Shown: positions 8,790-26,268 of the stretch, piece after piece
Layout of the letters: every line of letters starts with the position of its first letter
How positions within the stretch are numbered: position 1 is the stretch's first letter
From: a virus
Lineage: Duplodnaviria; Caudoviricetes
Virus record (IMG/VR): IMGVR_UViG_3300050034_000334
Strand: one strand, 5' to 3'
Length of the DNA stretch: 64,000 nt
Translations under genes and position numbers: made by a program
The notes under the pieces: model-generated
Databases searched by the model: none
The model's input: the letters and a program-made list of their open reading frames with translations, nothing else
What the model was told of the DNA's origin: nothing

Positions 8790-8825
8790 AAAAACCAAAT
8801 CCCGCCAGCTTGTGGGCTTGGCGGG
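8790..8825 (-). terminator. Intrinsic terminator of attenuator A, directly upstream of tRNA array A
   Basis: CCCGCCA-AGCCCACAAGC-TGGCGGG followed by ATTTGGTTTTT. Confidence 0.85.
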
Positions 8826-8852
8826 TGGAAACTCTGAAAATACCAGGTAGGA

Positions 8853-8948
8853 TTACGCACTACCTCCAGAATCCAGACCGCCGATGGCATGCTGATTTCG
8901 CTGCCACTGCTTATGCTGTCTCATCGAATTGGTCTGTATCTGTTTCAC
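8853..8948 (-). CDS. Leader peptide of attenuator A: MKQIQTNSMRQHKQWQRNQHAIGGLDSGGSA (31 aa, GTG start)
   Basis: RBS AAGGGAG 4 nt before GTG; 17 of codons 2-20 are K/Q/I/N/M/R/H/W; 3' part pairs with the terminator 5' arm. Confidence 0.85.
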   Translation of the reverse strand: MKQIQTNSMRQHKQWQRNQHAIGGLDSGGSA

Positions 8949-9010
8949 AGTACTCCCTTGACAAATTTCATAATACTACGGTTTCCTCTGATCGGGGAAA
9001 CTATTTTTGC

Positions 9011-10589: not shown

Positions 10590-11297
10590 ATGAAAAAGAC
10601 AATCCGTCTCACCGTGGGCAATGTCGAAACCTCTGGCGCGGAAGCTATTGTCAACGCAGCGAACAGGCATCTCAAGACTGGTCGCGGTGTATGCGGTGCG
10701 ATCTATGCCGCCGCTGGCGTGACAGAGCTTGAAACCTATGTAGCAGATCACTTTGAAGGCTGCCGCACCGGCAGAGCCGTGGTGACTCCAGCGTTTGGCA
10801 TCAGCGGATCCAAGTATGTCCTCCACGCTGTTGGTCCGATCTACTCCGAATACACTCCCCTAGAGGCGGCTCGCCTCCTCCGCAAAGCCTATCACTCGAT
10901 CTTTGAACTCTGCTACTCGCTGGGAGTCAAGAATGTCGGCGTCGTGGCGATCTCGTCTGGTATCTACGGGTATCCGGTTGAAGACGTTGCGAACATCGCG
11001 GCTGACGAGGCCATGCGCACCCCTTACAAGGGCGACATCACCTTCTACGTCTGGCAGGACAATCTGGCCGTCTTCGAGAAAGCCTTCGCTTCGATCCTCA
11101 CTCCAGCAGTTCCTGTGATCGTCGATAAGTGCGCTGTATGCGATTTGCCGGCTGACCACATCGACCATATCGGCCTTCTTGGAATGGGAATTGACCATCC
11201 TTTCAAAAGTTCACTGCAGCCAGTTACACCAGTATCTGATCCTGTGGACGCGAGCACGCGCAAGGTCTTCACGATGGATGACCCAGCAGTAGTCTGA
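10590..11297 (+). CDS. Macrodomain protein (ADP-ribose binding or hydrolase)
   Basis: AIVNAAN..L..GRGVCGAIYAAAG; YVLHAVGP; VAISSGIYGYP. Confidence 0.92.
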   Translation: MKKTIRLTVGNVETSGAEAIVNAANRHLKTGRGVCGAIYAAAGVTELETYVADHFEGCRTGRAVVTPAFGISGSKYVLHAVGPIYSEYTPLEAARLLRKAYHSIFELCYSLGVKNVGVVAISSGIYGYPVEDVANIAADEAMRTPYKGDITFYVWQDNLAVFEKAFASILTPAVPVIVDKCAVCDLPADHIDHIGLLGMGIDHPFKSSLQPVTPVSDPVDASTRKVFTMDDPAVV

Positions 11298-11301
11298 CAC
11301 T

Positions 11302-11556
11302 ATGGCGCCAACGAAGTGGAAGAAAATTCGCTGGTTCTTCAAGATCGGCACTGACTACTTTGCCCGGTCTGAGATCAAGTCTGTTCGGCAGTTGAAGACT
11401 CCGTCTCCTGATCGAGACGGAGGACCTGATCGTACCTGGATTGTGACGGTCACCCCTGAGTCAGTCGGTGGTGACCCTCGCTACAGCAAGATCTGGGTCA
11501 CTGAAGAACAGGTTGCGCCTATCCTGGTTGCTCTCGAGGAAGAGGTCAACGGATGA
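11302..11556 (+). CDS. Hypothetical protein
   Basis: ORF follows the macrodomain gene in operon. Confidence 0.55.
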   Translation: MAPTKWKKIRWFFKIGTDYFARSEIKSVRQLKTPSPDRDGGPDRTWIVTVTPESVGGDPRYSKIWVTEEQVAPILVALEEEVNG

Positions 11557-13067: not shown

Positions 13068-14120
13068 ATGGCTATGGAACTGCCCACCGTTGATACTGCA
13101 AAATCCTTCTGGTCTCGACCGGAAGGAAAAGTCGGTGCCCTTATCCTTTTGTTGATCGCGGGTCTGGGCATCTATGAATACTCACTAATCCTGCCCTGGT
13201 TTGTCACGATGCTCGAGGATACCGTTCACATGGTGTTTCTCGGATGCGTTTTGGTAGCCATGGGTTGGCTGCTGTTCAGCAAGACTTCGCACATGATGTT
13301 CCGGGTTCTCATGCGCGTCTTCACTGGCTTGTTTGTCAGCGTCTATCCGATTGAGATCATCGAAGACAAACTCACGGAGATGAAGAAACGGCGCGACAAG
13401 ATGAACGCACAGATCTCGGAGGTCTCCGGTCAGATTGTCACTCTACAACGGGTCATGACCAAGAATCATCAGGATGCTGTGCAGGGTTTCAACATGGCAC
13501 ATGCTGCCCAAGATCAGGCCGCTCGAGCCAGTGACGATGCTGAGAGACTCCGCAAGCAGCTACAGATACAAGCCAATGCGCGCAAGGCCCAGAGACGTGA
13601 GAACGCCAATGTCGGCTATGCCACACTGCTCCAGAAACTGCAGGGCATCTACAGCTTCCTGTCCAAGTACGCTGCCCACATCGACTTCTTCATCGATGAC
13701 ACCACAGACGAAGTTGAGCAGAAGAAGATCGAGTACAAGACGACCAACACTGCCTTTGGCGCCATGACCATGGCTATGAAGGTGATGAAGGGCAACGCGA
13801 CTGAAGAAGACATCTACGGCCAAGCGATGGATTACATCGAGTCCGATGTCAGCCGCAAACTGGGAATCATGGATGATCTACAACGGGTCAGCCAGAACTT
13901 CATGGATGGTCTTGACGTTCAGGAAGGTGCTGTTGACACCCAGGCTCTCCAGGCTCTCAACGATTATGAGCACAAGCTGCTCACTTCCGGCGACACTGAA
14001 CTCGCAGTGATGCTACCGGGATCAACCCCGCAGAAAGTACCAGTGGCTCGTGGGTCAGTGACAACGATGCCTTCGTTCAGCAACTCAGGCGGCGACGACT
14101 ATTCCAGTCTCCTCAAGTAA
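13068..14120 (+). CDS. Membrane-anchored coiled-coil protein (PspA-like C-terminal region)
   Basis: N-terminal transmembrane segments (SFWSRPEGKVG...), long helical region. Confidence 0.7.
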   Translation: MAMELPTVDTAKSFWSRPEGKVGALILLLIAGLGIYEYSLILPWFVTMLEDTVHMVFLGCVLVAMGWLLFSKTSHMMFRVLMRVFTGLFVSVYPIEIIEDKLTEMKKRRDKMNAQISEVSGQIVTLQRVMTKNHQDAVQGFNMAHAAQDQAARASDDAERLRKQLQIQANARKAQRRENANVGYATLLQKLQGIYSFLSKYAAHIDFFIDDTTDEVEQKKIEYKTTNTAFGAMTMAMKVMKGNATEEDIYGQAMDYIESDVSRKLGIMDDLQRVSQNFMDGLDVQEGAVDTQALQALNDYEHKLLTSGDTELAVMLPGSTPQKVPVARGSVTTMPSFSNSGGDDYSSLLK

Positions 14121-20748: not shown

Positions 20749-21889
20749 GCTATATGCAATTCCAGCAGCGTTGCAAAGCCTGTCAGAAGTCCTGGAACGC
20801 TGCGTTTGGAATTGTCCCTCTGGATCGATTCATGGAGGCTATCATCATTCGTGATACGCGCTGGCTCGGGCAGGAACGCCGCAAGGCTGAGCGCAGAAAA
20901 GGGGAACTGTGAGCTGCTCTTATCACAAAGAAGGTTGTGCATCTACTGGACAAGTGATTGGCGGAAAGTGGATTTGCCTTAATCATATGCCCGGCGAATT
21001 TAACGCCCTGCAAGCCTCACACGAGGAACTGGTAAAGGCGCTGAAAGAGGCGCGGGGTTACCTCGCCAATTATTCGCGCAGGGAAATGTGGGGAACCGAT
21101 GGCGACGACGATGTAAAACACGCTCAGGACGTTATTGTTGTCGCCCTAGCTAACGCGGCGAAGCTGGCCCCAACCCGTACCCAACCCGTACCAAAAGTGA
21201 GGCGAAATGACTGCTCTACTAGTCCTGTCCGCGCCCACCATGTTGGCCGTGGCTGTCGTTATCTTTGTCTACGTCTCCGGCCTGTGCCGGGGGAAGAAGG
21301 GTGCGCTGTGATTGGTGACGACTTCCACTCTCATCTTGACGAATGCCAACGGTGCAGAGAGGACGTATTTAATCTCTGTCCTGTAGGAATCAAACTCCTA
21401 ACAGACGCAGTGAAGACCATCGATGATCCCATGATGCGCGGACTTGTGCAGTGGAATCACATCGTACAAAGGGAGGACCGCAATGCCAGTTGAACGTCTC
21501 GACAAACTGATGATCGATGCGACCGGCCATGGCTACTACCAAGCAGACGACGCCGATCCCGACGAGGCCGTTACGCCCTATGCCAAAGCACGTGCCAGGG
21601 AGGATGCGCTACTAAAGGCGCTGAAAGCAGTTCTGGATCTCCACTGCTCTATGGATATGGGCGAAACTTCTACGCAAGCGCGGCTACTCATCCGCGAGAT
21701 CAAGGCCACCCGATGACACTCCGCAACGGCTCCTGGACCAACCGAACCGACCCGATGTACGACCACTCCCACGAGTACCGTTCATCCACTGTACCGCGTC
21801 GTTACGTTAACGGAACCACCATTTTCTGCGCTATTATTCTAGTTGTGTGGGGAATCGTAATCATTTTCAAGCACTAAAAAAGGAGAAAT

Positions 21890-22144
21890 ATGGCAAACGA
21901 ATTAACGATTATCAACCCAATGACCATCGGCAAGGAACTTCAGAAGTACGAAGTTCAAATGGAAAAGGCTTTGCCGCTTCATATGTCAGCGGCAAGAATG
22001 GCGAGAATTGCGCTTACATCCTTGCGTGTTAACCCAAAGTTGTGTGGCTGCACACGAGAATCATTTTTTGGTTCCTTGATGGCTGCTTCGCAAAGTCATC
22101 AGAGGGCCGTCAGGCATTGGCGGAGGGAATCAGATTTGAACTGA
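21890..22144 (+). pseudogene. recT: RecT-family recombinase, N-terminal fragment
   Basis: KALPLHMSAARMARIALTSLRVNPKLCGCTRESFFGSLMAASQ, then breaks at ~22095 and collides with tRNA-Ser. Confidence 0.8.
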
Positions 22145-22205
22145 TGGAACCTTTCGGTTCGGCACGTTAGCAGTGTGCTGGATTAAACCGCTCTCCCATC
22201 CCTCC
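22118..22205 (-). tRNA. tRNA-Ser(GCT)
   Basis: GGAGGGA...CTGCTAA...long variable arm GAACC-GAAA-GGTTC...TCCCTCC-G-CCA. Confidence 0.96.
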
Positions 22206-22216
22206 GTTGTAAACTT

Positions 22217-22299
22217 TGGTGCCCAGAAAGGGGATCGAACCCTCACGATTTCTCAACGGTTTTTAAGACCGCAGCGTCTGCCAGTTTCGCCATCCGGGC
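22217..22299 (-). tRNA. tRNA-Leu(TAA)
   Basis: GCCCGGA...GCGGT-CTTAAAA-ACCGT...TCTGGGC-A-CCA. Confidence 0.96.
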
Positions 22300-22647
22300 A
22301 CGAACCTTACCTGTGTTTCTTCCACAAAATGTGAGAAGTTGACTGTCGCAGTTGGGACAAACCTTTCTCATGTTCTCCCGACGGCAATCTCGCTTTCTCC
22401 CATTGATGTGGTCAATTCTCATTACCAGAACTTGACCGTTCCACATTCCTGTCAAGCCACAGATCGTACAAACTTCTGGAAGTTCTTCTCTGAATCGATC
22501 TTTGGCTGCTTGTAGATGTTCAGAGTTGTCTACAAACACCACAGAGTCTAATAACTTGAGTCTGTGAGATGTCGTGCCAGGTTTCCAAGGTTTTCCACCT
22601 GGCACTCTTCTGGAATCAAATCCATTGCTAAATGGCTTTCCACTCAT
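22243..22647 (-). CDS. HNH homing-type endonuclease; 3' end reads through tRNA-Leu(TAA)
   Basis: CTICGLTGMWNG...RIDHING...ENMRKVCPNCDSQ; last 57 nt lie inside the tRNA. Confidence 0.88.
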   Translation of the reverse strand: MSGKPFSNGFDSRRVPGGKPWKPGTTSHRLKLLDSVVFVDNSEHLQAAKDRFREELPEVCTICGLTGMWNGQVLVMRIDHINGRKRDCRRENMRKVCPNCDSQLLTFCGRNTGKVRARMAKLADAAVLKTVEKS

Positions 22648-22680
22648 GCTTCTTAGAATACTGCCATCTAGGCTTCAACC

Positions 22681-22917
22681 TCACAAGTTGTTCCACCACC
22701 AGGGCATGCCGGGAGGAGGCACTCTGCCCCTTGTTTTACGAGGTGAATTGCCCCGTTCCCCAGTCTTGCCGATTTGAAAACTAATACTCGAGCCATGTTC
22801 TGACAATGGCTGCACAAAATCGGGTGCTCCAAATGAGCGTGGTCTACAGGAAACTTCACTAGATTGGCCATTCTCATTCTCCTCAGTGATTATGGTTCGG
22901 ACAGTAATCATGTCCAA
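22681..22917 (-). CDS. Hypothetical protein
   Basis: ORF between tRNAs with RBS AGAGTAGGG. Confidence 0.4.
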   Translation of the reverse strand: MDMITVRTIITEENENGQSSEVSCRPRSFGAPDFVQPLSEHGSSISFQIGKTGERGNSPRKTRGRVPPPGMPWWWNNL

Positions 22918-22976
22918 ACCCTACTCTTTGTTGAACTGCATGAAAGGTCAAAGTAGCTCTCTGCAGCTTAATCTTT

Positions 22977-23061
22977 TGGTGCCGATGGCCGGGATCGAAC
23001 CGGCACGCCCGAAGACACTGGCTTTTGAGACCAGCGCGTCTTCCAATTCCGCCACATCGGC
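22977..23061 (-). tRNA. tRNA-Leu(CAA)
   Basis: GCCGATG...CTGGT-CTCAAAA-GCCAG...CATCGGC-A-CCA. Confidence 0.97.
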
Positions 23062-23075
23062 ACATTTCAAACCTT

Positions 23076-23160
23076 TGGTGCCCGATAAGAGACTCGAACT
23101 CTCACGCCTTGCGACAACAGATCCTAAGTCTGCCGCGTCTGCCAATTCCGCCAACCGGGC
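23076..23160 (-). tRNA. tRNA-Leu(TAG)
   Basis: GCCCGGT...GCAGA-CTTAGGA-TCTGT...ATCGGGC-A-CCA. Confidence 0.97.
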
Positions 23161-23173
23161 ACTTACTAAACTC

Positions 23174-23329
23174 TTGTACGAACGAATGACGAGATGGGAA
23201 ATGCCTTTCGGCTACCGCTGCCTTTGCCAGCTTGGCTACTCCCCGTCATGGTCGGGGAGACAGGACTCGAACCTGTGAAGACTTTCGTCGGCGGTTCCAA
23301 GATAACCCACTACTCTACGGCTCGTACAA
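23174..23329 (-). ncRNA. Circularly permuted tRNA-like RNA (Y RNA/YrlA-like candidate)
   Basis: Order: ACCGC, variable arm, T arm (ACAGG-TTCGAGT-CCTGT), CTCCCCG-ACCA-TGA-CGGGGAG, D arm (GCC-AAGCTGGCAAA-GGC), GCGGT, GCCGAAAG; ends pair TTGTACGA/TCGTACAA. Confidence 0.75.
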
Positions 23330-23333
23330 AACT

Positions 23334-23422
23334 TGGTCGGGATGAAGGGAGTCGAACCCTCACGCTACTTGATTTCGCTCGTGGACCTGAACCACGCGTG
23401 TCTGCCATTTCACCACATCCCG
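23334..23422 (-). tRNA. tRNA-Leu(CAG)
   Basis: CGGGATG...CGTGG-TTCAGGT-CCACG...CATCCCG-A-CCA. Confidence 0.96.
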
Positions 23423-23441
23423 AAACTCTACTTCAAAACTT

Positions 23442-23528
23442 TGGTCGGAGCGAAGGGATTCGAACCCTCCCGATGTTGCCACCATGAGCACCTCAAGCTC
23501 ACGCGTCTGCCAGCTTCGCCACGCTCCG
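23442..23528 (-). tRNA. tRNA-Leu(GAG)
   Basis: CGGAGCG...TGAGC-TTGAGGT-GCTCA...CGCTCCG-A-CCA. Confidence 0.96.
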
Positions 23529-23534
23529 ACATCT

Positions 23535-23750
23535 TCAAACTTCTGTTCTCACACTCTTGGGGAGATCCAACCCCCATCCACGTTGAATATTCTCCGAGTC
23601 CGTGGTCATGAACAACTCTTTGACCTTCCATCGGTCACTCGGATCCTTATCAAGATCTACCTCAACACCGGGCCTCAGTCGACGGTCAGCAGGCAGCCAG
23701 GTGATCATGTGGCTAGTTCCCTGTTGGATTAGTGCCTGAATCAGCTTCAC
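23535..23750 (-). CDS. Small hypothetical protein
   Basis: GTG start after tRNA-Tyr with RBS GAAAGGAA. Confidence 0.5.
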   Translation of the reverse strand: MKLIQALIQQGTSHMITWLPADRRLRPGVEVDLDKDPSDRWKVKELFMTTDSENIQRGWGLDLPKSVRTEV

Positions 23751-23769
23751 GGTGTTCCTTTCAAATCTT

Positions 23770-23861
23770 TGGTGCAAGCGGAGGGATTTGAACCCCCAAT
23801 GTTAGCTGCTAGAGCGGCAGATTTACAGTCTGCTGCGACCAACCGTATTCGCCTCGCTTGC
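23770..23861 (-). tRNA. tRNA-Tyr(GTA)
   Basis: GCAAGCG...GCAGA-CTGTAAA-TCTGC, long variable arm, CGCTTGC-A-CCA. Confidence 0.95.
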
Positions 23862-23862
23862 A

Positions 23863-23891
23863 CAAACAAAAACCACTCCCGGAGGAGTGGC
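23863..23891 (-). terminator. Intrinsic terminator of attenuator B, directly upstream of tRNA array B
   Basis: GCCACTCC-TCCG-GGAGTGGT followed by TTTTGTTTG. Confidence 0.9.
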
Positions 23892-23918
23892 TCTTGTGAA
23901 CTTGGTTTTGAGGTCGTC

Positions 23919-24011
23919 TTATATGCCTCTCCACCTTGCCACAGAGCCACTCGGCAAGCTAAGGTAATAGCTTGACAGTGACGGGGACGAAGATAGAGAC
24001 AGTAAACGCAT
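23919..24011 (-). CDS. Leader peptide of attenuator B: MRLLSLSSSPSLSSYYLSLPSGSVARWRGI (30 aa)
   Basis: RBS GAGG 9 nt before ATG; uses all six Ser codons, five different Leu codons and both Tyr codons; GAGTGGCTCTGTG pairs with the terminator 5' arm. Confidence 0.9.
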   Translation of the reverse strand: MRLLSLSSSPSLSSYYLSLPSGSVARWRGI

Positions 24012-24039
24012 GACGAAATTCCTCACTCTTACATGATAC

Positions 24040-24067
24040 TCTACTGAGCGGAAAAGTAAAGCGGTTA
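24040..24067 (-). promoter_or_regulatory. Phage promoter TAACCG-N16-AGTAGA driving leader B and tRNA array B
   Basis: Exact motif match 28 nt upstream of the leader ATG. Confidence 0.8.
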
Positions 24068-24073
24068 GGAAAA

Positions 24074-24316
24074 CTATTTTCCCGTGACGACGGATTTCTC
24101 TTTACGAGTGGCACTATTGGCAATGTCTTCATACTCGAATTCTTGGAGTTTGTGAAGGTTCTTCATCTGAAAACGAACACCCTGGGCTGCCGTGATCTCC
24201 TCATATCCTGTGGGAGTAGCTTCACCACGATAGATCTGGAGGAGAGGTCCTCCCTCAACAGGAAAAGCAATCAGGGGGAAATCTCTCATGTAGGCAGTTA
24301 GCTGATCGTCTTCCAC
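24074..24316 (-). CDS. Hypothetical protein
   Basis: ORF from the track. Confidence 0.45.
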   Translation of the reverse strand: MEDDQLTAYMRDFPLIAFPVEGGPLLQIYRGEATPTGYEEITAAQGVRFQMKNLHKLQEFEYEDIANSATRKEKSVVTGK

Positions 24317-24320
24317 CAGG

Positions 24321-24641
24321 TTGTCTTCGTTAAATTCTTCACCAGACTCTTCCTCTCATCAAGAGTACCAACACGACGAGATCAAGGTCAAAGGTCGCAA
24401 GTTTCACTCCGACCAGTACCTGGCGACGGTTGAGCATCCCATTCCTCCTGCCGGCGAATATCGTGTGACCCGCACCAGCTATGGCGGCGGCGGAACAGGC
24501 ATGGGTCCCCATGACGTCTTTCCGGACGGTCATCGCGTGTATGCCAAGCCGGTCAATGCCGACGAGCCACTCATCTCATTCTATCAGACCGGCTGCTTCA
24601 CGGCCATGATCGAAAATCCCAAGATTGTTTCAAGAGTCTGA
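24321..24641 (+). CDS. Hypothetical protein (start uncertain)
   Basis: TSYGGGGTGMGPHDVFPDGHRVY..., phage-like small protein. Confidence 0.5.
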   Translation: MSSLNSSPDSSSHQEYQHDEIKVKGRKFHSDQYLATVEHPIPPAGEYRVTRTSYGGGGTGMGPHDVFPDGHRVYAKPVNADEPLISFYQTGCFTAMIENPKIVSRV

Positions 24642-24680
24642 ATTCCTGTTCCTTCGTAGGAGTGGAAAATGAAATCAAAA

Positions 24681-25040
24681 CTACTGAAGACAGCTGCTGG
24701 GGAAGAGTATGCTGTATTTCTTGGTGGAGATGATCAAAGCGAGGGTGGCCCTGTGATCTCCACCGGGATAACAGGTACTCTTGAGCAGATATTTTCGAGA
24801 ACCGATCATTTGTACACCCGACTCAGTGAATTGGAGGTCTACTTCACGAATGTTGACCTTGCGAACTCCGTCGTCTTCTAGACCTTCCAGAAACTTCTGA
24901 TCCACCAGTAGATATACATTGCCAAAGTAGTCTGGAGGAATGGTGACTGTTGCTTCATAGGGAGTATGTCCCTCTTTGGCGACTCGAACATGGTCACCTA
25001 GATCAACGGCGAGAGGAGGAAACCTTAGAATCTTTGCCAT
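24681..25040 (-). CDS. Hypothetical protein
   Basis: ATG 8 nt below the promoter at 25049-25076. Confidence 0.55.
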   Translation of the reverse strand: MAKILRFPPLAVDLGDHVRVAKEGHTPYEATVTIPPDYFGNVYLLVDQKFLEGLEDDGVRKVNIREVDLQFTESGVQMIGSRKYLLKSTCYPGGDHRATLALIISTKKYSILFPSSCLQ

Positions 25041-25048
25041 GAATGAAA

Positions 25049-25076
25049 TCTACTCTCTTTTGCATATAATCGGTTA
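25049..25076 (-). promoter_or_regulatory. Phage promoter motif TAACCG-N16-AGTAGA
   Basis: Exact motif match. Confidence 0.7.
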
Positions 25077-25121
25077 GCGGAGCCAGTATCAAGAGTTGGT
25101 CATTGCCGATTGGAGATCAGA

Positions 25122-25454
25122 ATGAAACGTACTATCCTCTTTGTACTGCTGTTCATCGCCTCCGTGTGTGTAGTCACAGCACAGGATAAACCTGTTGTAA
25201 ATAGAGTTGTTCCAACTGCCGCACCACCAATCCTTGGCACCGCTGATCGCCTTGCTCTCCAGGGCTTAGAGAAGATCAAGGCTGATGCTCAGAAACAATG
25301 GAGCGAGGCCAACGATCAGGAATTCGCTGTCATGCGTGAATGGCAAGTTGCTCATCCAGGCTGGCATGTCTTCTACAATCCTCAGGGCGACGCCAAGAAC
25401 TTCACTATCGTGCAGGACGAGAAGCCCAAGACGAAGGTTGAAGAGAAGAAGTAG
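25122..25454 (+). CDS. Secreted hypothetical protein
   Basis: Signal peptide MKRTILFVLLFIASVCVVTAQD. Confidence 0.65.
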   Translation: MKRTILFVLLFIASVCVVTAQDKPVVNRVVPTAAPPILGTADRLALQGLEKIKADAQKQWSEANDQEFAVMREWQVAHPGWHVFYNPQGDAKNFTIVQDEKPKTKVEEKK

Positions 25455-25491
25455 TCTTCTGTCTTCTGGACTCATAGTGGAGGGTCATGCT

Positions 25492-26268
25492 ATGAGTCTG
25501 GAAAAGGTTGTTCTGCCGGGCAAGCGTCTCGGATGCAAAGCCAAGAAGATCGATTCAAGAACTCTGAAGATGGCCAAGTATTTGGCATCTGGTCTACCTC
25601 CAGCGCCTCCTTCTGTCGATTGGACCAAGAGCATCACTGTTTGGGGCATGATGCTTAACGACCAGCTTGGCTGTTGCACTATTGCCGGCCTCGGTCATGC
25701 AATTCAAACCTGGGTAAGCAACGCCAGCATGCCAAATGCTGACACCCTGAATGTCACTGATGCCGAGATTCTGAAAGGATACGAGGATTTCGATGAATAC
25801 AACCCTCAAGATCCTTCCACTGATCAGGGCGGCATTGAGCTCGATGTGCTCAATGATTTCAAGAAGCAGGGATTCGCTGGCGCCACACTCTCTTCATTCG
25901 TTTCAGTGAACGTGAAGAACCTGGCAGAAGTTCGTCAGGCGATTGATCTATTTGGTGGGGTCTACATCGGAGTGGAGCTTCCGCTCTCGGCACAGGGTCA
26001 GACTATCTGGGATGTGATTCCAACGGATCCTGGTGAATCTAACCTGGCTGGATCATGGGGTGGTCACTGTGTGTGGGTGCCCAAGTACGATGAGACGAGC
26101 TTCACTTGCATCACATGGGGTGCACCACAAAAGATCACCGTGGAATTCTGGAAGGCGTATGTCGACGAGGCTTATGCTCTGCTCAGTCCACAGTGGATAG
26201 AAGCCATTCCACCAGTGGGTCGCTTTGATCTTGCAACCCTCCAGGCAGACATCGCACAGATCGGCTAG
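25492..26268 (+). CDS. Papain-like (C1/C39-type) cysteine peptidase
   Basis: MMLNDQLGCCTIAG (catalytic Cys); WGGHCVWVPKYD...ITWG (His). Confidence 0.8.
   Translation: MSLEKVVLPGKRLGCKAKKIDSRTLKMAKYLASGLPPAPPSVDWTKSITVWGMMLNDQLGCCTIAGLGHAIQTWVSNASMPNADTLNVTDAEILKGYEDFDEYNPQDPSTDQGGIELDVLNDFKKQGFAGATLSSFVSVNVKNLAEVRQAIDLFGGVYIGVELPLSAQGQTIWDVIPTDPGESNLAGSWGGHCVWVPKYDETSFTCITWGAPQKITVEFWKAYVDEAYALLSPQWIEAIPPVGRFDLATLQADIAQIG

Follow-up and report, generated by a model that had tools for sequence, protein, structure and literature searches.

Leader-peptide attenuators of enterobacteria include trpL, hisL, leuL and pheL, together with multivalent leaders such as those of ilvGMEDA (Ile/Val/Leu) and thr (Thr/Ile), and the pheST leader is a leader-peptide attenuator of aminoacyl-tRNA synthetase genes. 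To our knowledge, all of the leader-peptide attenuators so far described regulate enzymes of amino-acid biosynthesis, transport or charging. A His leader has also been reported upstream of hisS paralogues in bacilli (PMC2965389). From computation alone, without experiment, we consider it very probable that a ribosome-mediated (leader-peptide) transcription attenuator gates a Tyr-Leu-Ser tRNA array in the giant phage examined here.

The locus shares with the leaders of amino-acid operons a promoter-proximal short ORF, a run of regulatory codons that serves several amino acids in one leader, the alternative pairings 1:2, 2:3 and 3:4, and an intrinsic terminator ahead of the regulated genes. It differs from them in that the genes it would regulate are tRNAs rather than biosynthetic enzymes, so that the molecule sensed is the product itself, in that the leader samples synonymous codons, one per isoacceptor, in place of a single-codon repeat, and in the position of the stop codon, which lies between regions 2 and 3 rather than before region 2. 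Synthetase-gene leaders resemble it in attenuating a component of the translation machinery that determines the supply of charged tRNA; they act, however, on a charging enzyme and a single amino acid, whereas the present element stands before tRNA-gene arrays, covers three or more amino acids and is found in a virus. T-box riboswitches are likewise sensors of tRNA status that act on an intrinsic terminator by way of an antiterminator, but they bind uncharged tRNA directly, without translation, by means of Stem I and the T-box sequence, whereas the present element has a conserved, translated ORF.

Layout and transcription of the leader unit

The window, i.e. the whole stretch of DNA analysed, is 64,000 nucleotides long and corresponds to positions 15308-79307, minus strand, of a 187,058-bp IMG/VR virus record that is estimated to be 60% complete. 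The parts of the unit that precedes the Tyr-Leu-Ser array (array A1) are listed below from upstream to downstream, with the basis of each in brackets.

24073..24080, minus strand: octamer AAAATAGT upstream of the promoter, overlapping the stop codon of an upstream 80-aa ORF (shared octamer)
24074, in minus strand order: end of the upstream 80-aa ORF
24033..24060, minus strand: promoter-like site, TTTACT, 16 nt, TATCAT (consensus scan, 9/12 matches)
24019..24026, minus strand: ribosome-binding site GUGAGGAA, with GAGG 9 nt before the ATG (read from the sequence)
23919..24011, minus strand: leader ORF of 30 codons and TAA (ORF list, sequence reading)
23955..24005, minus strand: sensor run, codons 3-19 (codon content and genome-wide window count)
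23955..23974, minus strand: apex hairpin CAAGCU / AGCUUG inside the sensor run (minimum-energy fold)
23940..23952, minus strand: region 2, the antiterminator 5' strand GAGUGGCUCUGUG, codons 20-24, within the ORF (duplex prediction)
23885..23898, minus strand: region 3, CACAAGAGCCACUC, the antiterminator 3' strand and at the same time the terminator 5' arm (duplex prediction, covariation)
23897-23866, with T-run to 23862, minus strand: intrinsic terminator with a 14-bp stem and a UCCG loop (fold)
23861-23770, minus strand: tRNA-Tyr(GUA) (ARAGORN, Rfam)
22118..23861, minus strand: cargo placed under control of the unit (ARAGORN, Rfam)

Within the sensor run 16 of the 17 codons specify Leu, Ser or Tyr, the sole exception being CCG (Pro) at codon 10. 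The Leu codons of the leader are TTA, CTG (twice), CTA, CTT and TTG, representing five types; the run also holds five of the six Ser codon types and both Tyr types, with AGT lying outside it at codon 21. Among 212,607 stop-free 17-codon windows drawn from the six frames of the 187-kb genome, a content of 16/17 Leu, Ser or Tyr was reached once, by the leader itself. Seven TCN codons of this leader no longer have a phage tRNA behind them in the same genome.

The codon list given in the initial annotation was exact (30 codons and TAA, window 24011-23919, minus strand), and its statement that codons 3-19 are all Leu, Ser or Tyr but for one Pro was upheld, as was the presence of one leader codon type for each of the downstream Leu tRNAs (UAA, CAA, UAG, CAG and GAG). 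All six Ser codons and both Tyr codons that it counted occur in the leader, although AGT falls outside codons 3-19. The coordinates at which it had placed the pairing strands (23952-23940 and 23898-23885, the latter overlapping the terminator 5' arm) were also correct. Its claim of a consensus phage promoter 28 nt upstream stood only in part: a promoter-like site is present, but it is not a general consensus and its -10 hexamer ends 21 nt before the ATG. The leader was additionally considered as a degenerate class II tRNA; this was rejected, no tRNA being called there by ARAGORN or Rfam.

The stop codon of the leader is separated from the terminator hairpin by a 21-nt spacer. The hairpin ends 4 nt before tRNA-Tyr, which starts at 23861, leaving no room for a promoter between the two. 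Region 2 has two alternative partners, the sensor codons (1:2) and region 3 (2:3). For the window leader the 1:2 pairing was predicted at -32.1 kcal/mol (minimum-energy fold of the ORF alone) and the 2:3 duplex at -20.6 kcal/mol, a strength matched in none of 500 shuffles of the upstream sequence. The 3:4 pairing came to -22.7 kcal/mol, or -15.7 kcal/mol without the pairs into the U-tract. The leader region as a whole folded at -66.1 kcal/mol, against -44.6 ± 4.1 kcal/mol in shuffles (z = -5.2).

The unit was compared with the criteria for a leader-peptide attenuator. A short ORF with a start codon (ATG at 24011) and a ribosome-binding site is found near the predicted transcription start, and its regulatory codons are cognate to what the operon supplies, as judged for the window leader from codon types and isoacceptors. 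The required intrinsic terminator between leader ORF and regulated genes is present, conserved and covarying. There is also an antiterminator that is mutually exclusive with the terminator and has its 5' strand where a translating ribosome can cover it, the masking resting on a model, and the anti-antiterminator (1:2) appears in the minimum-energy fold of the window leader, which is a prediction only. The criterion that the cargo consist of amino-acid biosynthesis, transport or charging enzymes was not met, the cargo being tRNA genes instead. It comprises seven tRNA genes and two small ORFs, in the order tRNA-Tyr(GUA), 71-aa ORF, Leu(GAG), Leu(CAG), tRNA-like fragment, Leu(UAG), Leu(CAA), HNH-like ORF, Leu(UAA) and Ser(GCU).

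The AAAATAGT octamer also precedes the leaders of two further arrays of this genome (A2 and A3, described below) and the leader of a 463-kb contig (L077); any function assigned to it is inferred. Of just four occurrences of the module AAAATAGT ... GTAG(N0-2)TATYAT in 187 kb, three are at the leaders of A1, A2 and A3, and this confinement mostly to leaders indicates a module of these units and not a general phage promoter. A -10 element of the type GTATTAT is retained in relatives 20-28 nt before the ATG.

Portions of the stretch are contained in 18 RNA runs from peat or permafrost. Over 23600-24300, metatranscriptome contigs of three runs extend from 23600 or 23871 up to 24000-24009, and none reaches further upstream. 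These limits fit a transcript that starts at the predicted promoter, although contigs cannot prove transcript ends. The terminator and tRNA-Tyr were spanned by one contig each in two of these runs, which shows that transcripts crossing the terminator exist; as the evidence consists of contigs only, dependence on translation is not shown. For a fourth RNA run, carry-over of DNA cannot be excluded.

Conservation, alternative folds and ribosome position

In close relatives (L005, L007-L010 and L073-L075) the leader is identical but for one synonymous change of TAT to TAC. Diverged relatives, with 33-58% identity in the marker, were found by means of the 71-aa array protein; their source is peat and permafrost metagenomes, and contigs of 162, 332 and 463 kb are among them. 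A Leu/Ser/Tyr leader with an ATG and a terminator stands ahead of the Tyr-Leu array in twelve diverged lineages, whose marker protein is 44-89% identical to that of the window, homologous leaders being located upstream of such arrays in L011, L012, L077, L078, L079/L080, L081, L082, L083, L085, L088/L089 and L090. The leader ORFs of the relatives have 22-33 codons with a Leu/Ser/Tyr core in which the motifs LSLSLYYLLS and LSLALLYTLLS recur. Their stop codons lie 15-25 nt (mostly 21-24 nt) before the terminator stem, and the terminator lies 7-20 nt before the first tRNA; in two lineages (L077 and L078) the unit is followed by a small ORF and only then by the array.

Ten leaders were aligned (alignment A4, which is distinct from array A4 below). 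The ATG is invariant, an AGGA-like site is found 7-9 nt upstream of it in most of the ten, and indels within the ORF preserve the frame. Between L081 and L083, 13 of 30 codons differ, 10 of them synonymously and 3 non-synonymously, and between L083 and L085 there are 6 synonymous and 5 non-synonymous codon differences. The sequences of the terminators differ between lineages; 89.3% of the terminator pair cells in the alignment were paired, 6 pairs had changed on both sides and the covariation score was reached by 0 of 500 shuffles. For the antiterminator 73.6% were paired, compared with 31-50% in slid controls, 5 pairs had changed on both sides and the covariation score was 0.207 versus 0.127 in shuffles, a value reached by 1 of 500. 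The antiterminator 5' strand retains a GGCUY core and GUG, with compensatory changes. Eight of the ten leaders have, at about codons 18-26 of the ORF, a significant partner for the terminator 5' arm, with 2:3 duplexes of -13 to -26 kcal/mol (shuffle fraction 0.01 or less).

The 1:2 pairing around the apex hairpin was predicted in all ten leaders, and CTTAGC, on which this hairpin is built, is the sole invariant hexamer of the alignment. The hairpin is, by inference, a candidate polymerase pause hairpin. A scan of viral contigs for the apex-hairpin motif returned 61 loci, all of which were chance matches. Two of these loci lie inside an endonuclease-like ORF of an unrelated tRNA-rich phage, and both were used as the negative controls described below.

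The influence of ribosome position was modelled by masking the ribosome footprint and folding the transcript as it exists just before region 4 emerges. With the A-site at codons 2-16 of the window leader the predicted probability of the antiterminator was about 0.9, and with the A-site at codons 17-28 the antiterminator was blocked, region 2 being covered. Codons 17-19 (CTT AGC TTG) are, according to this model, probably too close to region 2 to act as sensors, since a stall there would cover part of region 2. In the absence of a ribosome the cut transcript also favoured the antiterminator (probability 0.82), and the off state of an untranslated leader would therefore depend on the 1:2 pairing forming first. 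When the full transcript was folded at equilibrium, no switch was seen for A1 or A2 at any ribosome position, the terminator always being favoured, from which we infer that their control must be kinetic. The leader of A3 switches even in the full-transcript equilibrium model. Attenuation of the trp operon is likewise under kinetic control. Kinetic competition in leader-peptide attenuators has been discussed previously (PMC1183508).

The course of events that we propose is as follows. Transcription would begin about 15-20 nt before the ribosome-binding site, and in the nascent leader region 1 (the Leu/Ser/Tyr run) would pair with region 2 around the small conserved apex hairpin. Where decoding is fast, the ribosome would occupy region 2 (codons 20-25) and the codons that follow during synthesis of regions 3 and 4 by the polymerase; the terminator would then form and transcription would stop 4 nt before tRNA-Tyr. 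Where charged Leu, Ser or Tyr tRNA is scarce, the ribosome would stall at roughly codons 3-16, covering region 1 and leaving region 2 free to capture region 3 before region 4 emerges, and the polymerase would read into the array. Any single sampled codon could trigger this read-through. As the products of the array are the very molecules that are sensed, the element would constitute a negative-feedback regulator of tRNA supply. We infer from the geometry in which direction the switch works, and the physiological signal is also an inference.

It is conceivable, but in our judgement unlikely, that the leader is translated and coupled to termination by some other logic, either through ribosome-polymerase coupling or Rho access (pyrBI-like or polarity-like), or in the sense that stalling causes termination. 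Such a scheme could accommodate the equilibrium folds of the window leader, which always yield the terminator, as well as the distance of 21-24 nt between stop codon and terminator stem in most lineages, which would leave a terminating ribosome near the hairpin; the direction of the switch, moreover, has been inferred and not measured. The ORF nevertheless ends before the terminator in all lineages, so that a ribosome cannot physically melt it, and a conserved, covarying antiterminator strand follows the sensor codons within the ORF, which is the arrangement of an element in which stalling induces read-through. Production of tRNAs only when tRNAs are already plentiful would, in addition, have no evident use.

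We regard as very unlikely a second possibility, namely that the element acts as RNA alone and the ORF is incidental, whether as a small RNA released at the terminator or through T-box-like direct binding of tRNA with several specifiers. The strong structure of the leader reflected in its z score would suit an element of this kind, one RNA run contains a separate contig of higher depth over 23844-23955, and trans-acting terminated attenuator RNAs are known (rnTrpL, PMC6614838). However, no Rfam family matched the leader at E values up to 5; this includes the T-box model, with its Stem I specifier loop and T-box sequence, and leader families such as Leu_leader, His_leader, Thr_leader, Trp_leader and others, for which 23862-24030 gave no match. 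A cmscan of 21500-25500 with the same limit returned only tRNAs and weak, unrelated matches. The conservation of ATG, ribosome-binding site and frame, with mostly synonymous substitutions, also speaks against an incidental ORF, as does the finding that the four leaders of this genome have no sequence in common and share only the match to their own arrays. A role in trans for the terminated RNA would be an addition to leader-peptide attenuation and not an alternative to it.

Correspondence between leaders and tRNA arrays

The genome as a whole carries 31 tRNAs in four arrays, all on one strand. The arrays, their leaders and the coordinates of the unit ahead of A2, termed Attenuator A, are given below.

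A1 (Tyr, Leu x5, Ser): 16/17 leader residues Leu, Ser or Tyr, unique in the genome; terminator clear
A2 (Arg, Met, Trp, Gln, His, Asn, Lys): a leader window with 12/12 codons read by the array, with 3 such windows genome-wide; terminator clear
A3 (Val, Gly, Asp, Ala, Glu), outside the window: 16/17 residues, unique in the genome; terminator clear
A4 (Pro x3, Phe), outside the window: leader with CCA, CCG, CCT and two TTT, weak when taken alone (p about 0.006); no clear terminator
8801..8979, minus strand: Attenuator A, the A2 element, with promoter module, leader and terminator
8948-8853, minus strand: A2 leader of 31 codons, rich in Lys, Gln, Asn, Met, Arg, His and Trp
8825-8801, minus strand: A2 terminator, before the Arg-Met-Trp-Gln-His-Asn-Lys array

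When each leader was scored against each array, the diagonal of the matrix was strongest for A1, A2 and A3. An array-matched leader ORF with an intrinsic terminator is clear in three of the four arrays; for the Pro/Phe array the match is weak and the terminator unclear. In L004/L006, where a mixed array (Ala, Tyr, Arg, Leu, Phe, Pro, Thr, Gly, Cys, Ser) is present, the leader is also mixed: 23 of its 27 codons are read by the tRNAs of the same locus (p about 2e-4 within the locus), and a near-consensus sigma-70 promoter lies ahead of it. Two unrelated tRNA-rich phages (L014 and L015) served as negative controls and gave chance-level scores in the same pipeline.

The close relative L007 possesses the full array; its own tRNAs read 18 of 29 leader codons, among them every codon of the sensor run (codons 3-19) apart from CCG. 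Across the lineages with a visible array, the Leu codon types of the leader equal the Leu anticodons of the array in 7 of 9. The window and L082 possess all five Leu types, including TTA together with Leu(UAA), and L079, L083, L085, L088 and L090 have neither TTA nor Leu(UAA). L011 lacks both CTG and Leu(CAG) and has TTA without a visible Leu(UAA), and in L081, whose contig is cut, CTA occurs in the leader but no Leu(UAG) is visible. Because several arrays are cut by locus ends, the table of codons against anticodons is incomplete for L011, L012 and L081. The co-occurrence of TTA and Leu(UAA) gave counts of 2, 1, 0 and 6 lineages (Fisher's exact p about 0.08, shared ancestry ignored), for which no significance is claimed. 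Some relatives have leaders with several codons for Asn, and the visible portion of their arrays contains no tRNA for this amino acid.

From the TCN codons of the window leader the initial annotation had predicted that Ser(TGA/CGA/GGA) tRNAs once followed Ser(GCT), and all three are present in close relatives: in L005, L007, L009, L073 and L074, Ser(GCU) is followed directly by Ser(CGA), Ser(UGA) and, on contigs long enough to include it, Ser(GGA). The window and L005 match at 99.3% up to 22118, the last base of Ser(GCU), and then diverge; homology of the window to L007 is not regained until 20816. In place of the three Ser tRNAs the window has about 1.3 kb of other sequence, part of which is a RecT-like N-terminal fragment. 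Given the Ser tRNAs of the close relatives and this replacement, the prediction holds. Relatives that kept the terminator without the ORF or its codon set would have refuted the original proposal, but both are kept in twelve diverged lineages, and those of its checks that could be run by computation (ORF and terminator of the relatives, Ser tRNAs of the relatives) came out in favour of the attenuator.

A third possibility is that the ORF arose by chance, or is a small gene of the ordinary kind that has a promoter and terminator of its own and no connection with tRNA control, the pyrimidine-rich arm of a hairpin merely happening to encode Leu and Ser. This is scarcely tenable, for although Leu and Ser are six-codon amino acids, a CU-rich strand read in frame encodes mostly Leu, Ser, Pro and Phe, and the sensor run forms one arm of a long hairpin, the leader is the unique extreme of the genome, three further leaders of very different composition match their own arrays (two of them strongly), the design is kept over twelve lineages and varies with array content, the 4 nt between hairpin and first tRNA leave no space for another promoter, and L014 and L015 remained at chance.

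Novelty and implications for tRNA supply

A full-text literature search, which included the attenuator survey PMC2965389, brought up no publication in which tRNA genes are described as subject to leader-peptide attenuation; in the literature found, such attenuation is described only for amino-acid and synthetase genes. Comparison of 4 kb by blastn and of the 71-aa array protein by tblastn with 50,697 phage records gave tRNA-level matches or nothing, and almost none of ten large ORFs received a name from PHROGs.

A similar layout was encountered in the Caulobacter phage CcrKarma (JX100811), which likewise has a promoter, a mini-ORF that spells the amino acids of the tRNA block that follows, and a terminator just before the block. 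The ORF ahead of its Phe-Val-Ile-Ile-Val-Gln-Gln-Arg block contains QFVRQIQVVRNIR (one block, inspected by eye), and terminators are annotated in the record just before tRNA blocks. This ORF has no sequence relationship to the leader family of the window. As CcrKarma is a cultured phage, the shared layout makes direct bench testing possible.

A broader reading can be offered tentatively, as a possibility that we take seriously without yet leaning towards it: that self-tuning attenuators, as a class both widespread and unpublished, control the tRNA arrays of phages, and that their leaders are codon-by-codon test strips that co-evolve with the gain and loss of tRNAs (e.g. TTA with Leu(UAA)). Since a leader of this type responds directly to failed decoding, it would double as an alarm. 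If this is true, the alarm would switch on replacement tRNAs when the host, or an anticodon-nuclease defence of the host, depletes a tRNA. The TCN codons of the window would in that case be a relic of the three lost Ser tRNAs, and the leader would sense a shortage that its array cannot relieve.

The attenuator proposed here would represent a new use of a textbook mechanism, applied to tRNA genes themselves, in viruses, and with one codon sampled per isoacceptor. The leader sequence permits prediction of the tRNAs that an array once contained, the lost Ser tRNAs being an example, and the element would offer a small, naturally occurring device for sensing how fast chosen codons are decoded. These observations bear on phage tRNAs, on codon usage and on host defences that target tRNA. 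Should the proposed mechanism hold, it would reveal the way in which large phages adjust the dosage of their tRNA sets.

Elements within and beside the Tyr-Leu-Ser array

The Tyr, Leu and Ser(GCU) tRNA genes of the window are accompanied by the following features (window coordinates).

20817-22117, replacement segment of approximately 1.3 kb
21890-22144, plus strand, RecT-like N-terminal fragment
22243-22647, minus strand, ORF of 134 aa that separates Leu(CAA) from Leu(UAA) and shows an HNH-like Cys/His pattern
23174-23329, minus strand, tRNA-like piece of permuted order, between Leu(CAG) and Leu(UAG)
23538-23750, minus strand, 71-aa ORF with the conserved C-terminal motif NIQRGWGLDLPK.QRTE

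The replacement segment stands where close relatives carry a Ser(CGA)-Ser(UGA)-Ser(GGA) block, and includes the RecT-like fragment, which overlaps the 3' end of tRNA-Ser(GCU). Like the HNH-like ORF here, endonuclease-like ORFs break up the arrays of other phages, namely the large mixed array of a relative (L004) and those of unrelated tRNA-rich phages (L014 and L015).

The order of the tRNA-like piece is T-arm, 3' acceptor strand, CCA, then the matching 5' acceptor strand and D-arm. A weak match to the Rfam family YrlA (22.6 bits) lies inside it at 23220-23278. The region is conserved at approximately 82% in the close relative L007. At the analogous array position in the diverged relatives L088-L090, ARAGORN predicts an odd tRNA with a two-base anticodon. 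A Pfam search with the 71-aa ORF returned no match; the ORF is present in at least 25 metagenome loci, almost always embedded among phage tRNA arrays.

Comparison with Caulobacter phage CcrKarma

At 13380-13814 and 11080-11374 of its own record, the cultured phage CcrKarma (L099, JX100811) exhibits the same layout as the leader-terminator-tRNA units of the window, its annotated terminators directly preceding tRNA blocks. The ORF ahead of the Phe/Val/Ile/Gln/Arg block contains QFVRQIQVVRNIR. The product of the ORF ahead of the Pro/Lys/Leu/Ser block, gp083, has a high content of Ser, Leu, Pro and Lys, but also of Thr and Ala.

Leader-like elements elsewhere in the genome

Two further elements lie outside the window, in the full 187,058-bp record (G000:C1 coordinates).

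181408-181578, leader of a Pro-Phe-Pro-Pro array
185150-185500, fourth occurrence of the promoter module found at the leaders, upstream of an 11-codon ORF (MRDGYFFGDDF) and a structured region

The Pro-Phe-Pro-Pro leader contains CCA, CCG, CCT and two TTT codons, with three CGA codons interleaved. No clear intrinsic terminator was found at this leader, which may employ a different mode of termination or may be in decay. No tRNA was called in the structured region at 185150-185500, and this locus may represent another leader, with a target other than tRNAs.
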